Of a stretch of 64,000 nt of DNA, positions 4,514 through 59,633 are shown piece after piece; positions within the stretch are counted from its first letter, which is position 1; every line of letters starts with the position of its first letter. This DNA comes from Gammaproteobacteria bacterium (GTDB lineage Bacteria; Pseudomonadota; Gammaproteobacteria; UWMA-0217). The stretch is from the NCBI GenBank assembly GCA_026981985.1, contig JALSHZ010000121.1, positions 17,168-81,167 on the forward strand, in the 5' to 3' direction. The position numbers and the translations under genes are program-made. The notes below the pieces were generated by a model. That model did not search any database. It saw nothing but the letters and a program-made list of their open reading frames with translations, and was not told the DNA's origin.

Positions 4514-5209
4514 ATGATTGCCGAAGCGACCGCTGATGCAATGCAATTGTTGCTGACCGGTGATCCGGCGCTGTGGGAGATCATCATGATCTCCTTGAGC
4601 GTTTCCGGGCGGGCATTGTTCTTGTGTCTGCCCGCTGGTATCGCATTGGCCTTTTTGTTGTCCTATCTGGAGTTCCCCGGTCGGCGGTTGGTGGTGGTGA
4701 TGTTCCAGACACTGATGTCGATTCCCGCCGTGGTGATTGGCCTGACGGTCTACCTTCTACTGTCTCGACATGGTCCGTTTGGTGATCTCAAGCTGCTGTT
4801 TTCCCAGACGGCGATGGTGGTTGGGCAGATGATGCTGAGCTTTCCGATTATCGTCGCCTTGGGCTATGCTGCATTCCAGGCAGCTGGGCGTAGAGGCTGG
4901 GAAACGGCGAGGACATTGGGTGCTGGCAGGATAAGGGCTTTCTTCGCGTTATTGCATGAGGTGCGTTTTGGCCTGTTCGTGGCCTTTGCTGCTGCGTTTG
5001 GGCGCATCATTTCTGAAGTTGGTGTATCGATGATGGTCGGTGGTAACATCCTTGGCTACACGCGCAACATTCCAACGGCTATCGCGCTGGAGAGCAGCAA
5101 GGGCGAGTTCGCGCAGGGCATTGCACTGGGCTTTGTGCTGATGCTGATCGCGTTGGTTTTGAATATGTCGCTGCACTTTTTCCAGGGCCGTGAGCCCGTG
5201 ATCGTCTGA
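4514..5209 (+). CDS. ABC transporter permease of the ModB/TupB/CysTW type (tungstate or molybdate-like)
   Basis: Six transmembrane helices and an EAA-loop region (WETARTLGAGRIRAFF). The stop codon is 8 bp before the ATPase gene. Confidence 0.8.
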   Translation: MIAEATADAMQLLLTGDPALWEIIMISLSVSGRALFLCLPAGIALAFLLSYLEFPGRRLVVVMFQTLMSIPAVVIGLTVYLLLSRHGPFGDLKLLFSQTAMVVGQMMLSFPIIVALGYAAFQAAGRRGWETARTLGAGRIRAFFALLHEVRFGLFVAFAAAFGRIISEVGVSMMVGGNILGYTRNIPTAIALESSKGEFAQGIALGFVLMLIALVLNMSLHFFQGREPVIV

Positions 5210-39082: not shown

Positions 39083-39156
39083 TACATCGCTTGAAGTCTG
39101 TTCAAGTTGCGGAGTCTAGCCGGATGGTTTTTGTGGCTGGCCGGCCGCAAACCTCC

Positions 39157-39311
39157 GCTGTAACTACTCAGCGTTCGCTCAAGTAGAACTGGCACTGCTC
39201 AGATTGCCGCTGGAATGCGTCAGATCAAGGCGGGAAATGTGAGTTTACACGTGTAAATGACCATTTCCCAACGCAGAGATGGCGCATTCCAGTGGTGAGC
39301 TGAGTAGTTGC
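39157..39311. repeat. MITE-like intergenic repeat, copy A. It has terminal inverted repeats (GCTGTAACTACTCAGC ... GCTGAGTAGTTGC) and an internal palindrome TTTACACGTGTAAA.
   Basis: About 85% identical to the reverse complement of 58573-58721. Confidence 0.8.
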
Positions 39312-39319
39312 GTGCCGCT

Positions 39320-39715
39320 TCAATCAACCCGCTTCAGCAGAATCTGATTCGGCGCATCGTCGCTCGCAAAGCGCGTCGGGCGTGATTTCAGGTCGGAGCC
39401 GGCACGTAGCCGCAGTTTGTGCAGCGAGACCATTTGGGCAATCATCGGCACTTCCTGGATATTGCCGGAGGGCGTGTGCATTTTAAGGGTGAGGTGAGCC
39501 GGGTCACGGCTGCTGTCCAGCGTCCAGGTTCCTACCAGTGTCCGCTCGTCCTGACTCAGTGCGAGATCTTCATTGCTGAATTGCAGCGTGATCTGATGTC
39601 CAGCCGCATCCGTCCCCTGCCATCTTCCCTGGATATCGGTATCGATCGATGTGGAGCAGCCTGCGAGCAGTGTGGTGGCGAGAATCACACCAAATCCAAA
39701 TATCCCCTTGTTCAT
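39320..39715 (-). CDS. Hypothetical lipoprotein
   Basis: The lipobox LLAGC following MNKGIFGFGVILATT. Confidence 0.7.
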   Translation of the reverse strand: MNKGIFGFGVILATTLLAGCSTSIDTDIQGRWQGTDAAGHQITLQFSNEDLALSQDERTLVGTWTLDSSRDPAHLTLKMHTPSGNIQEVPMIAQMVSLHKLRLRAGSDLKSRPTRFASDDAPNQILLKRVD

Positions 39716-42673: not shown

Positions 42674-43702
42674 ATGAATAAGATCCTTACCGTCACCGTC
42701 AATTACAAGACAGCCGAACTCACCATCAAGTGCATTGAATCCGTTGCCCGGGAGCGTGAGCTGAATGCCCCGGGGCTGGAGATGTGTGTTGTCGACAATG
42801 ACTCGCAAGATGGCTCGGTCGAGAAAATTGCCGCGGCGGTACGGGAAAACGGCTGGTCCGATTGGGTTGAGGTGCTTCCCGCGGGTTGCAATGGCGGATT
42901 CTCCTTCGGCAACAATGTGGCGATCCGCCCTGCGCTCGCCCGGCCACGTGATCAGCAGCCTGACTTCATCTGGTTGCTCAACCCTGATTCTGAAGTCGAA
43001 CCCGGTGCGGCCCTTGAGCTGATCCGGTTCATGCAGGAGCGTCCGCGGGTGGGCATGACGACAGGGCTTTCCTATGGTTTGGATGATGAGATTCAGACCG
43101 TGGCCTATCGCCACTTCAGTCCGCTGACCGAGTTTGTTGGCATGTCACAAATTGGTGTGCTTGAACGCCTGATGCCGTTCTCGAATGTCGTGCTGCCGTT
43201 GGGTGATGAGCCCAGCCAGGCGGTCTGGCTTTCCGGCGCCTCGCTGATGATCCGTCGCGAGGTGTTCGATGATACGGGCCTGATGGATGAAGACTATTTT
43301 CTCTACTTCGAGGAAACCGATCTGTGCATCCAGGCCGGGCGTGCCGGCTGGGAGATGTGGTATGTGCCAGCCAGCCGGGTGATGCATGTCGAAGGCGCTG
43401 CGACGGGTTTCACGCTCGAAGAGGTGGCCAAGCCGCGGCGTGCGCGGTACTGGTTTGAGTCGCGGCGTCGTTTCTTCCGCAAAAACTACGGCTTGCTGGT
43501 CGCCATGCTGGCGGATCTGGGCCATCTGAGCGGATATATGCTGTGGCGTCTGCGCCGCATGCTCCAGAACAAGCCGGATCTCGACCCGCCGTTCTACTTG
43601 CGCGACTTCGTTGCCAACAGCATTTTCGTGGCAGGATTCGGTTTGGGGCGCAGCAAGCTGGCTATTCCGCAATCTCCAGAACGGCTCGCTGGCCGGGCGT
43701 AA
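42674..43702 (+). CDS. Family 2 glycosyltransferase (paralog 1 of 3)
   Basis: A GT-A fold with VVDNDSQDGS (DXD), and a conserved C-terminus YWFESRRRFF shared with the two other copies. Confidence 0.85.
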   Translation: MNKILTVTVNYKTAELTIKCIESVARERELNAPGLEMCVVDNDSQDGSVEKIAAAVRENGWSDWVEVLPAGCNGGFSFGNNVAIRPALARPRDQQPDFIWLLNPDSEVEPGAALELIRFMQERPRVGMTTGLSYGLDDEIQTVAYRHFSPLTEFVGMSQIGVLERLMPFSNVVLPLGDEPSQAVWLSGASLMIRREVFDDTGLMDEDYFLYFEETDLCIQAGRAGWEMWYVPASRVMHVEGAATGFTLEEVAKPRRARYWFESRRRFFRKNYGLLVAMLADLGHLSGYMLWRLRRMLQNKPDLDPPFYLRDFVANSIFVAGFGLGRSKLAIPQSPERLAGRA

Positions 43703-53278: not shown

Positions 53279-54262
53279 TCAGGTCTTACGCTTGTCGAGC
53301 GAGAACCCCTTGACGAAAACACTGTGCCGGAAAAAATCCGTCAGATAGGCTGGCGGATCGAGGTTTTGCTTGCGTTGGATGAACTGACGTATCAGCCAGA
53401 GTGAATAGCCAGCCATGTGCAGGGCGTCAGCCAGCGCCGCATAGGCAGCGCCGTGATTCTTGATGAAGTAGCGGCGGCGGGATTCGAACCAGTAGCCGGG
53501 CCTTCGTGGTTGCCGGGCGCTGGTGTGCCGAAAACCTGTCGAGGCGCCAATCACGTGCAGGATTCTGCTCTCCGGCACATACCAAAGCTCCCAGCCTTTG
53601 CGCTGCGCCTGGAGACAGAAGTCGCTCTCCTCGAAGTAGAGGAAGTAATCTTCGTCCATCAGGCCGATGGTGTCGAAAACCTCGCGCCGAATCATCAGTG
53701 AGGTGCCGGATAGCCACTCCGCCAGGTGTGGTTGGGGTTCCGGCGTGACTGGAATTACCGTTTTTGGCAGCAGGCGATCGACGATCCCGAGCCGCAGGTT
53801 CGAAAAGAATTCACTCAGCGCAGTGAAGTGGCGGAAGGCCATGGCTTTTTGCTCGCCTTCGGGATCGATATAGCGGCTGGTGGCCAGCCCGGCTTTGGGA
53901 TGCGCTTCCATGAAATCCAGCAAGGCCTTGCCTGCACCCTCTAGCGATTCCGCATCAGGGTTGAGCAACCAGAAGTAGTCGGGCGGCTGGTCAGCTGTGA
54001 GTGCCGGGCGGATGGCGATATTGTTGCCATAGGAAAAACCGCCATTGCGTTCGGCCGCGACGACCTCAGCCCAAGACTGCCAGCCATTCTCTTTGATAGC
54101 GTTTCTGATCGTGTCGACAGACCCATCGCCGGACTGATTGTCGACCACAACCATTCGGGTTTGCTCGGGAAGGTTGCGCAGGTCGGCGGCAATGGATGCC
54201 AGGCACTTGATGGTCAGTGCGGCAGTGCGGTAGTTGACGGTGACAATGAGCAGTTTGGGCAT
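53279..54262 (-). CDS. Family 2 glycosyltransferase (paralog 2 of 3)
   Basis: LLIVTVNYRTAALTIKCL..VVDNQSGDGS..YWFESRRRYF. A longer ORF runs to 54289. Confidence 0.85.
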   Translation of the reverse strand: MPKLLIVTVNYRTAALTIKCLASIAADLRNLPEQTRMVVVDNQSGDGSVDTIRNAIKENGWQSWAEVVAAERNGGFSYGNNIAIRPALTADQPPDYFWLLNPDAESLEGAGKALLDFMEAHPKAGLATSRYIDPEGEQKAMAFRHFTALSEFFSNLRLGIVDRLLPKTVIPVTPEPQPHLAEWLSGTSLMIRREVFDTIGLMDEDYFLYFEESDFCLQAQRKGWELWYVPESRILHVIGASTGFRHTSARQPRRPGYWFESRRRYFIKNHGAAYAALADALHMAGYSLWLIRQFIQRKQNLDPPAYLTDFFRHSVFVKGFSLDKRKT

Positions 54263-54481
54263 GGGGGTTGGGCCATTTGGGATTGGCATTGTTGTCTCTG
54301 GCCGCGATGGTAGTAGAGATGCTTGAAAAGATCACGGAACCCATCCGGTTTCCGTGGCGGATGCACTCTTTTGGTTGGTTTGGCCCAGTTGATCTCATGA
54401 TCAGATGAACAGAGTTTCACAGTTGGCCACTCAAGACTGTGTTAGCTTGGTGTTTGGAGGAAGTTGCACAGATATTGACCG

Positions 54482-55519
54482 ATGAGTGAGAAGCCGATTC
54501 AACTGGCGATTGTAACCGTCAACTACAAAACGCCGGACCTGACCAATAGATGTATCGATGCGGTCTTGAACGATGCGCAAGCATTACCGCCCTTTCGCAT
54601 GTTTGTGGTCGATAACAACTCCGGGGACGGGTCGCCGGAGGTGATTGGCCAACATATTGACGCGCGTGACGCAGGTGATTGCGTCGAACTGCTGGTGGCG
54701 CCAGTGAATGGTGGCTACGCCTATGGCAACAATGTTGCGTTGCGCGCCATTCGCGAGCGTGGCTTGGATCCGGCTTATATCTGGTTCCTCAATCCCGATA
54801 CCGAGGTCGAGCTGGGTGCCGGCAAGGCGCTGATCGACTTTCTCGATGCGCATCCACAGGCAGGTATGGCGGGCAGTGGGCTGATCGACGCTGACGGTAC
54901 GCCCCAGATCTCCGCGTTTCGCTTCCACGCGCCTCTGAATGAATTTCTCGAATACATGCAGCTGGGCATTCTGGATCGGCTGTTCAGCAACTATCAGGTA
55001 ACGATGCCGGTCGCGTCAGTGCCGCATCGTGCCGACTGGGTGACCGGCGCCTCGTTCATGATCACGTCGCGGTGCATCGACAGCGTAGGGCTGATGGATG
55101 AAGGCTACTTTCTCTATTATGAAGATGTCGACTATGGTTTTGCGGCAGCCCGGGCCGGATGGGAGGTTTGGACAGTGCCGCAGAGTCGGGTGTTCCACGT
55201 CTGTGGTGCGGCAACGGGTGTGCTCGATTTCAATATGAAACAGCCGCGCCGGCCGGATTACTGGTTCGAATCACGCCGCCGCTTTTTTCTGAAGAACTAC
55301 GGTAAGACGACGCTGCTGCTGGCCGATATTGCCCTGCTGACGGGTTTCTCCCTGTGGCGCCTGAGGCGCCTGATTCAGCGTAAACCCGATTTCGACTCGC
55401 CTGGATTCCTTGGTGATGCATTCCGCCATTCCGTGTTCGCGAAGGGCTTCCGTCTACAGACACGTGCGTTGCCATCGGAAGTCGAGCTGCCGCTGGCGGA
55501 GCAGGATTCCCCATCCTGA
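54482..55519 (+). CDS. Family 2 glycosyltransferase (paralog 3 of 3)
   Basis: LAIVTVNYKTPDLTNRCI..VVDNNSGDGS..YWFESRRRFF. Confidence 0.85.
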   Translation: MSEKPIQLAIVTVNYKTPDLTNRCIDAVLNDAQALPPFRMFVVDNNSGDGSPEVIGQHIDARDAGDCVELLVAPVNGGYAYGNNVALRAIRERGLDPAYIWFLNPDTEVELGAGKALIDFLDAHPQAGMAGSGLIDADGTPQISAFRFHAPLNEFLEYMQLGILDRLFSNYQVTMPVASVPHRADWVTGASFMITSRCIDSVGLMDEGYFLYYEDVDYGFAAARAGWEVWTVPQSRVFHVCGAATGVLDFNMKQPRRPDYWFESRRRFFLKNYGKTTLLLADIALLTGFSLWRLRRLIQRKPDFDSPGFLGDAFRHSVFAKGFRLQTRALPSEVELPLAEQDSPS

Positions 55520-57910: not shown

Positions 57911-58567
57911 TTGATCAATATGGTTGCGCTACAACGTACAGTGCCGGAGTTCAGCCCGGTAATCGACCGTTTTCTTCAAAACTGTCATATCAAGCACTAT
58001 CCGCCCCGCTCGGTCATCATCCATGCGGGTGATCCACCGGAAACATTGTACTTCATCACCCGTGGCTCGGTCACCGTCATGATCGAAGACAAGGACGGGC
58101 ACGAGCTGGTGCTGGCTTATCTGAACAAGGGTGAGTTCTTTGGTGAAATGGGGCTGTTCGACGACAAGGCCCGTAGCGCATGGGTTGTCGCCCGCAGCGA
58201 ATGTGAAGTGGCCGAAATCCACTACAGCCAGTTCAAGAAGCTGTCGGCTGAAGACCCCGAGATTCTGTTCTCATTGGCGACACAAATGGCAACCCGCCTG
58301 CGTGACACGAGCCGTAAGGTCATCGACCTCGCTTTCCTTGATGTGACGGGACGGATTGCCCACACCTTGATGGAGCTATGCAGCCAGCCAGACGCAATGA
58401 CGCACCCCGACGGTATGCAGATCCGCATCACTCGTCAGGAAATCGCCAAAATCGTTGGTTGTTCCCGCGAAATGGCAGGTCGGGTGTTGAAAGACCTGGA
58501 AGAGCAGGGATTGGTCAGCGCACACGGCAAAACCATCGTGGTATTCGGCGCACGTCCTGGCACTTAA
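57911..58567 (+). CDS. crp: cAMP receptor protein (Crp/Vfr)
   Basis: A cNMP-binding domain (FFGEMGLF) and a C-terminal helix-turn-helix ([17 protein letters not shown]). An alternative start lies at 57920. Confidence 0.93.
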
Positions 58568-58572
58568 AACCT

Positions 58573-58721
58573 GCTGTAACTACTCAGCTTACCCCCCTTA
58601 TTTGCGCCAACTCTGCGTTGGAAGTGCTCATTTACACTTGTAAACTGCGCGCTTCCGCCTTGATTTGACGCAAAACGGGGGCAATCTGAGCAGTTACGAG
58701 ACTGTGCTGAGTAGTTACAAC
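58573..58721. repeat. MITE-like intergenic repeat, copy B, inverted relative to copy A
   Basis: Terminal inverted repeats GCTGTAACTACTCAGC/GCTGAGTAGTTAC and an internal TTTACACTTGTAAA. Confidence 0.8.
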
Positions 58722-58737
58722 CTGCTTACCTCAAGCA

Positions 58738-58772
58738 AACAAAAAAAGGCGGCCTCTAGGCTGCCTTTTTTG
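58738..58772. terminator. Bidirectional Rho-independent terminator between crp and trpC
   Basis: An A7 run, the hairpin ggcggcc-tcta-ggctgcc, then a T6 run. Confidence 0.7.
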
Positions 58773-58829
58773 TGCCCTGGGACCGCCGGCGTCCCGCCGG
58801 CAATGCCAGCAGGATGCTGGCGCTCCCGT

Positions 58830-59633
58830 TCAAAAAAACAGCTCCGCCAACGCCTCACCCGGGTCATCAGCCCGCATGAAGGCCTCCCCAACGAGGAAGC
58901 CGTTGACGTTAGCGGCGCGCATTTTTTCCACATTATCCCGGGTATGGATGCCACTTTCGGTGATCAACAGCCGATCGTCGGGGATCTTGTCCAGCATGCG
59001 CAGGGTGGTATCGAGTGACGTCTCGAACGTTCGCAGATTGCGGTTGTTGATGCCGATCATCGGCACTTCCGTCGCCAATGCGCGTTCGAGTTCGATCTCG
59101 TCGTGGACTTCCATCAGCACGTCGAGGCCGAGTTCGGTGGCCAGGTCAGCGAAAGCGCGCAGGTCGCGGTCGCCGAGACTGGCGGCAATCAGCAGGATGC
59201 AGTCTGCGCCCAGTGTGCGTGCTTCGTAGATTTGCCAGGCATCGACGACAAAATCCTTGCGCAGCACCGGCAACTCGCAGGCATTGCGCGCCTCGATCAG
59301 ATAGTCATCGCTGCCCTGGAAGAAATCGACATCGGTCAGTACCGAAAGGCAGGTCGCACCGCTGGCTGCATAGCGTTCGGCGATCCAGCCAGGATCGAAA
59401 TCCGGGCGGATCAGCCCCTTGCTGGGAGACGCTTTCTTGATCTCGGCGATGACCGCCGGCTCACCGGCGGTGATGCGTTCCCGCAGTCGCCCAATGAAGC
59501 CCCGGGGAGGCGAGGCAGAGCCCAGCCGTTCCCGCAGTGCATCGAGCGGGGTGTGTTGCTGGCGCTCGGCGACTTCTTTGAGTTTCCGTCTGAGTATCTT
59601 TTGCAGGATGTCGTCGGTGGCTGCTCGGGTCAT
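58830..59633 (-). CDS. trpC: Indole-3-glycerol phosphate synthase
   Basis: Full-length TrpC homology. Confidence 0.96.

Follow-up and report, generated by a model that had tools for sequence, protein, structure and literature searches.

The crp-trpC spacer of the 64,000-nucleotide stretch of DNA analysed here (referred to as the window) harbours a short hairpin-forming element, copy B, which is a MITE by every testable criterion. Taken as a whole, the evidence makes it very probable that copy B is a non-coding MITE that was newly inserted after crp, was moved by a transposase encoded elsewhere, and is likely a passenger at its present site. The MITE-like character assigned to it in the original prediction holds with respect to its inverted repeats, an 8-bp duplication, the lack of an internal ORF, the many copies and an empty site. 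The element proposed at 58573-58721 is real, while these edges were off, taking in three bases of the duplication too many on each side. The features of the locus and the second copy in the window are the following, in window coordinates:

39160 to 39311, plus strand: MITE copy A, 152 bp, of the same subfamily as copy B
57920 to 58567, plus strand: crp/vfr-type regulator gene, the identical protein having PF00027, PF13545 and PF00325; its 3' UTR holds the MITE
58568 to 58575, no strand assigned: left 8-bp target-site duplication, AACCTGCT, directly 3' of the crp stop codon (58565-58567)
58576 to 58718, minus strand as family reference orientation and better-folding strand: MITE copy B, 143 bp, missing in the empty-site relatives
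58576 to 58588, plus strand: left terminal inverted repeat of copy B, GTAACTACTCAGC, perfect over 13 bp, as in the family logo
58631 to 58644, no strand assigned: apical stem-loop of the element hairpin, TTTACACTTGTAAA, family consensus TTTAC-N4-GTAAA
58685 to 58697, minus strand: second, internal copy of the terminal repeat, GTAACTGCTCAGA, oriented the same way as the adjoining terminal repeat; conserved block GTAACTGCTCAGATTGCC in the family alignment
58706 to 58718, minus strand: right terminal inverted repeat of copy B, GTAACTACTCAGC when read on the minus strand, the exact reverse complement of the left one
58719 to 58726, no strand assigned: right 8-bp target-site duplication, AACCTGCT, a perfect match to the left copy
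58741 to 58771, no strand assigned: bidirectional intrinsic terminator common to crp and trpC (A7, hairpin 58748-58765, T6), older than the insertion and outside the MITE
58830 to 59633, minus strand: trpC (indole-3-glycerol-phosphate synthase, PF00218), convergent with crp
Both ends of the MITE family: terminal repeat pair GTAACTACTCAGC / GCTGAGTAGTTAC

Within the 64-kb window, the 13-mer of the terminal repeat is matched six times with up to two mismatches versus 0.61 expected matches, a count equalled by none of 100 shuffles. These matches comprise the ends of copies A and B, one inner site of copy B and one site that probably arose by chance. Similarly, the 18-mer of the inverted repeat yields three window matches where 0.03 are expected. 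The palindromes of copies B and A, TTTACACTTGTAAA and TTTACACGTGTAAA, are one base apart, as had been stated, and constitute the sole two matches in the window (0.10 expected); the pattern TTTACA(Y)(R)TGTAAA is likewise confined to copies A and B within the 64 kb. With regard to coding capacity, no ORF is contained in copy B, and two spurious ORFs merely cross its edges.

The earlier description of copy B did not include the perfect 8-bp direct repeat AACCTGCT around it, which is matched by the structure of the unoccupied locus in close relatives. For the empty-site comparison, contigs encoding a Crp protein identical to that of the window were used, and the site is empty in three of these relatives, namely L123 (GCA_054022275.1), L124 (GCA_054018095.1) and L126. 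Their crp-trpC spacer measures 110 bp, compared with 262 bp in the window, and the alignment reads TAA-AACCTGTT-TACCTCAAGC, or AACCCGTT in two relatives, i.e. a single 8-mer without the element. The insertion in the window has a length of 151 bp, made up of the 143-bp element and the 8-bp duplication. Flank identity to the window amounts to 97-98% in L123 and to approximately 92% in L124 and L126, while the L125 and L128 contigs stop within the copy B element and represent filled sites. Because relatives with identical Crp possess empty sites with a single 8-mer, copy B is a recent insertion and not a native regulatory site; it entered after the split from the relative whose flanks are about 97-98% identical. 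Copy B accounts for the 151 bp by which the crp 3' UTR differs among close relatives, which is of little consequence at the locus. Moreover, all contigs that are 100% identical to the window (L121, L122, L125 and L128-L131) end inside or beside copy A or copy B (window 39223-39287 and 58612-58798). Since multi-copy repeats stop short-read assemblies, contigs break at both MITEs, and the MITE copies explain where short-read assemblies of the source organism break.

As predicted, copies A and B are reverse complements of each other; an alignment that includes the flanks gives a mean column identity of 80%. The 8-mers flanking copy A, CCTCCGCT and GTGCCGCT, match at 5/8 positions, which suggests that copy A is the older insertion. 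No empty site for copy A was found among the contigs encoding the exact flanking proteins, as every one of these contigs ends at the repeat. Among the matches listed, the closest relatives of copy A reside in Sedimenticola bins (89%) and that of copy B in a Methylococcales bin (85%). Copy A (39152-39322) directly follows the stop codon of the minus-strand ORF 39320-39715, and its orientation toward this upstream gene is the same as that of copy B toward crp.

Beyond the window, the same ends delimit a large family. One genome per species was scanned with the pattern AACTACTCAGC-N(105-135)-GCTGAGTAGTT, for which about two chance matches are estimated in a collection of that size. At least 120 loci were obtained, containing at least 125 elements of 131-161 bp that share the terminal repeats. 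Gammaproteobacterial hosts among the matches listed comprise Thiotrichales, Methylococcales, Chromatiales, Sedimenticola and Pseudomonadales, and further hosts among them are Zetaproteobacteria, Chloroflexota, Bacteroidota and Ignavibacteria, Elusimicrobia, Leptospiraceae and a Clostridiaceae bin. Lineages rich in the MITE include those of the Mariprofundales bin JAUZRF01 and the Thiotrichaceae bin CAZYCY01. In the repeat logo of the listed matches, positions 1 and 2, which lie outside the search pattern, are occupied by G (95%) and T (97%), and conservation drops abruptly past position 13, giving the repeat a sharp 13-bp edge. Perfect 8-bp target duplications surround 72 of the 121 listed elements with scorable flanks, and 18 more match at 7/8 positions, whereas in a control with the register shifted by one base the scores peak at 2-4/8 and reach 7/8 at best, in two cases. 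The duplicated sites of the listed matches are AT-rich (27% GC) and roughly symmetric, with A at position 2 and T at position 7. The interiors of the listed elements fall into about 19 clusters, the biggest of which (n=58) stems from Gamma- and Zetaproteobacteria and includes both window copies.

As judged by comparison with Rfam, plasmids and the literature, this hairpin MITE family is apparently undescribed. A search of the whole window against Rfam 15 at the gathering score gave a tRNA only, and both copies returned only terminator-like noise at E values up to 10. Plasmid BLAST with copy A produced no match, and literature searches on the terminal repeat sequence, on IS66 combined with MITE, and on MITE combined with the host taxa yielded nothing relevant. 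In viral contigs, a single MITE of the family was found. The family is unusual in its identical 13-bp repeat across phyla and in its covarying, strand-biased hairpin. A single invariant 13-bp repeat with 8-bp duplications spans Proteobacteria, Chloroflexota, Bacteroidota, Elusimicrobia, Spirochaetes and Firmicutes, mostly in vent, seep and sediment bins. This cross-phylum repeat points to a widely exchanged transposase that is not yet tied to these ends. In addition, the family offers an easy means of tracing recent transposition and of typing strains in these uncultured lineages.

Several individual members deserve mention. The sole cultured-isolate match among those listed, in Ectobacillus funiculus (L028 4607-4738), lacks a target duplication and forms a weak fold (-26 and -31 kcal/mol), so that it may have matched by chance or represent a decayed element; since it is doubtful, the Firmicutes evidence rests on the Clostridiaceae bin. 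Zetaproteobacteria (L061, L080, L091, L076) and Chloroflexota (L033, L071, L096, L059, L082, L066, L006) share the interior blocks GTCATTGCGAG ... GAAGCAATCT ... AGATTGCTTCG ... CTCGCAATGAC, which could reflect either cross-phylum transfer or mis-binned contigs. A 274-bp copy at L043 2880-3153 is framed by the perfect 8-bp duplication TCCTTTCC and carries an insert of about 120 bp exactly at the apical loop; it was considered as a relic of a transposase gene and rejected, being a MITE with an insert of that length at its apex.

Read in the orientation of copy A, the subfamily elements begin with the terminal repeat, which a spacer of variable length (about 8-22 nt) separates from the inner direct copy of the repeat (GTAACTGCTCAGATTGCC), and continue with a sequence-variable stem, a conserved centre (CAAGGCG-AAAAATG-TGAG-TTTAC-N4-GTAAA-TGA-CATTTTT-AACGC), the returning stem strand and the opposite terminal repeat. 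The internal palindrome singled out in the original prediction is the tip of a hairpin spanning the whole element. It belongs to the family consensus, and in the few copies that deviate from this consensus, both halves change in a way that maintains pairing. As it is a consensus part of a widespread family, its role, whatever it is, is a property of the mobile element and not one of crp or trpC regulation.

The hairpin itself is strongly supported. Relative to shuffles, the fold z-scores for both strands of both copies range from -6.4 to -8.8, with -8.3 and -8.8 for the strands of copy B. Across 55 sequences and 43 pairs, standard pairs occupy 96.9% of the cells and compensatory double changes occur in 22/43 pairs; none of 500 shuffles reaches any of these measures, and sliding the partners by 1-3 columns leaves 35-47% paired. 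Moreover, the structure is strand-asymmetric: on the strand in copy A orientation, G·T cells outnumber A·C cells 336 to 27 (12:1), with the qualification that family members have largely inherited their G·T positions and that these cell counts exceed independent events by far. The mostly-G·T positions, e.g. 36/41, 50/143, 77/114 and 89/104, all favour the same strand, and the copy-A-orientation strand is more stable by a mean of 10.7 kcal/mol, being favoured in 54/58 subfamily elements. In copy B, it is the minus strand that is favoured. These properties suggest that one folded single strand, either DNA or RNA, matters for the propagation of the family, and the covarying strand-biased hairpin provides a concrete case for why MITEs keep palindromic structure.

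At the crp-trpC locus, both the crp stop codon and the terminator are intact after the insertion. The bidirectional terminator proposed earlier beside copy B is real, its hairpin GGCGGCC-TCTA-GGCTGCC at 58748-58765 being kept in the empty-site relatives, and it can work both ways because the hairpin lies between A7 (58741-58747) and T6 (58766-58771). Rfam gives only sub-threshold terminator-type matches at this terminator. Its 3' arm (58759-58765) reads GGCTGCC in the window, with one G·U pair, versus GGCCGCC in the empty-site relatives. The hairpin of copy B in the crp 3' UTR has a predicted folding energy of -65 kcal/mol. On neither strand of copy B is the element hairpin followed by a U-tract, and hence crp transcription should run on to the true terminator, which is located 22 nt beyond the right duplication, and through to 58766-58771. 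Transcripts of trpC should encounter this terminator before the element and stop about 20-25 nt away from it, ahead of position 58718. Furthermore, no promoter-like site was found within the element. As the relatives with identical Crp manage without the element, copy B is judged to be a passenger and most likely has little or no function at the crp locus, with a modest effect on crp mRNA stability being conceivable. Relative to neighbouring genes, the subfamily shows no clear orientation bias (18 versus 12 in tandem-gene contexts among the matches listed), which disfavours a general role within host mRNAs.

Regarding the mode of movement, a transposase encoded elsewhere would recognise the 13-bp terminal inverted repeats GTAACTACTCAGC and probably also the additional repeat-like site found at one of the two ends. 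It would then cut the target AACCTG(C/T)T just past the crp stop codon with an 8-bp stagger, and repair would double the 8-mer. The combination of an 8-bp duplication and short inverted repeats is indicative of staggered cutting by an enzyme of the DDE type, and the moving enzyme is most likely a DDE transposase. The IS66 family is the best candidate, preferred for the GTAA termini and the 8-bp duplication in common, and this fit is compatible rather than decisive. Among the families listed by ISfinder, none other than IS66/ISBst12 is known to have both GTAA ends and duplications of 8-9 bp. The MITE termini begin with GTAAC and hence have the GTAA start of both IS66-family elements examined. 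In the element from an E. coli plasmid, the repeats start with GTAAGCG and ATATCAAC on both sides forms a perfect 8-bp duplication, while the Cupriavidus element has the repeat GTAACGGCCCGGC (starting with GTAACGG), which is identical to the MITE repeat at 9/13 positions, and GATCAATT on both sides. The likeness to the IS66 family, including its ISBst12 group, encompasses the GTAA(G/C) termini and the 8-bp duplication, as checked on these two elements. Unlike IS66 elements, however, the MITE is devoid of tnpA, tnpB and tnpC, and its sharp 13-mer differs from the imperfect repeats of about 23-25 bp in the two IS66 elements.

An autonomous parent with the MITE repeats was not found in the at least 120 listed loci by means of repeat pairs 170-8000 bp apart, solitary repeats and adjoining ORFs; the candidate parent regions in these loci turned out to be ordinary genes or degraded MITEs, and recurring proteins clustered across the listed loci revealed no obvious transposase family. 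Additionally, metagenome contigs were searched with the back-translated TnpC motif NNxxExxxRxxxxGRKN, which had been validated on the E. coli and Cupriavidus IS66 elements. In these searches, which covered IS66-type right ends, the exact 13-mer at 201-261 nt from the motif gave no match, and a relaxed 10-mer at 230-290 nt gave two matches, both due to chance. In viral contigs, the IS66 loci were almost only near-copies of the E. coli element. An IS66-family element with tnpB and tnpC at L216 100-2320 has repeats that start with GTAT and not GTAA, and a sequence resembling the MITE repeat occurs 24 nt beyond its right end. As an IS66 parent it was rejected, its true repeats being GTATCCCCCCACTGCACCCCATCT (GTATCCCC...) and the MITE-like match lying outside the element.

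Since a DDE transposase of the cut-and-paste type acts on double-stranded DNA, this mechanism by itself leaves the strand-specific fold unexplained. It is conceivable, albeit unlikely, that propagation of the cross-phylum family needs a strand-specific folded single strand, either RNA or single-stranded DNA, and that the partner transposase, not yet linked to the repeat, is possibly not of the IS66 family. If true, this would constitute an inverted-repeat, target-duplicating transposon whose mobility or control depends on its own hairpin. A related proposal, that a functional structured RNA (a 3' UTR stabiliser, an RNase III target or an sRNA) is spread by transposition and that copy B modulates crp mRNA, is quite unlikely. 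It would account for the strong covariation, the conserved unpaired blocks CAAGGCG and AACGC, the G·U-type strand asymmetry and the many copies within about 12 nt of gene 3' ends. Against it, copy B folds better on its minus strand, which is antisense to crp and lies past the terminator for trpC. Moreover, the missing orientation bias and the lack of both a promoter-like site and an Rfam match argue against it, as does the relative with identical Crp and flanks about 97-98% identical that does without the element. The internal palindrome was initially considered as a possible protein-binding site; that it serves a dimeric DNA-binding protein which regulates crp or trpC is very improbable. TTTAC-N4-GTAAA is indeed nearly invariant in the subfamily, and the centre of the element is better conserved in sequence than the flanking stems; yet the palindrome is carried by a mobile element missing from identical-Crp relatives, it is located at the 3' ends of two convergent genes instead of a promoter, and its rare variants alter both halves jointly, thereby preserving pairing.

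Mobilisation as single-stranded DNA by a RAYT (HUH, IS200/IS605-like) transposase, as in a REP/REPIN-type element, appears exceedingly improbable. The hairpin form, the compensatory changes that maintain it and the strand-specific fold resemble what is reported for REP hairpins, but REP/REPIN and IS200/IS605-type elements are not known to make a target duplication, whereas most copies of the present family have precise 8-bp duplications and terminal repeats with a sharp 13-bp edge. Given that 8-bp duplications are the rule in the MITE family, a REP/REPIN identity was rejected. That the two copies represent an inverted repeat arisen by chance, or a terminator-like hairpin native to the crp-trpC spacer, has next to no probability; nothing speaks for it besides the location beside the terminator, and it is opposed by the shuffle controls, the at least 120 related loci and the empty site. 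An identity of copy B as intrinsic terminator was likewise rejected, as neither strand has a T-run after the element hairpin. The reading of copy B as an inserted MITE with little or no function at crp is preferred.

Among known systems, bacterial MITEs such as MITEAba12, Nezha and Chunjie provide the closest frame. Like these, the elements described here are small and non-coding, possess terminal inverted repeats and a target duplication, are multi-copy, mostly intergenic and polymorphic between strains, and can fold into a long hairpin. Unlike bacterial MITEs in general, the present family combines the 13-bp GTAACTACTCAGC, an 8-bp duplication and an extra repeat-like site with an occurrence in several phyla. 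The Correia/NEMIS elements of Neisseria and the ERIC/IRU elements of enterobacteria are intergenic hairpin repeats about 100-150 bp long. Transcribed as part of UTRs, they can influence how an mRNA is processed or how stable it is; they insert at and duplicate TA and have different, longer inverted repeats. The present family forms intergenic hairpins of similar length, but a Correia/ERIC-type (IS630-like) identity was rejected, since the MITE duplication comprises 8 bp of variable sequence and not TA. The MITEs of Thiomargarita differ as well, having either a 10-bp direct repeat plus a 19-bp inverted repeat or TATA ends.

Further observations concern the surroundings of the elements. About 14 of 38 flanks facing gene 3' ends lie within 12 nt of the element, i.e. 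insertions cluster at gene ends. The start of the terminal repeat, GTAAC, includes TAA, and several host ORFs enter a MITE and terminate there; the ORF tail ...SAHSRFSR is common to two such host ORFs (L024 about 4925-4959 and L115 about 5020-5140). Elsewhere in the window, the regions 42690-43410 and 53430-55300 share several long imperfect inverted matches of up to 195 nt at 74% and look like diverged paralogous genes on opposite strands. Finally, positions 1573-1746 contain four 30-nt direct repeats (AAAGGCGAAGTTGAAAGC...), imperfect and at spacings of 33-66 nt, which probably represent a repetitive coding segment.
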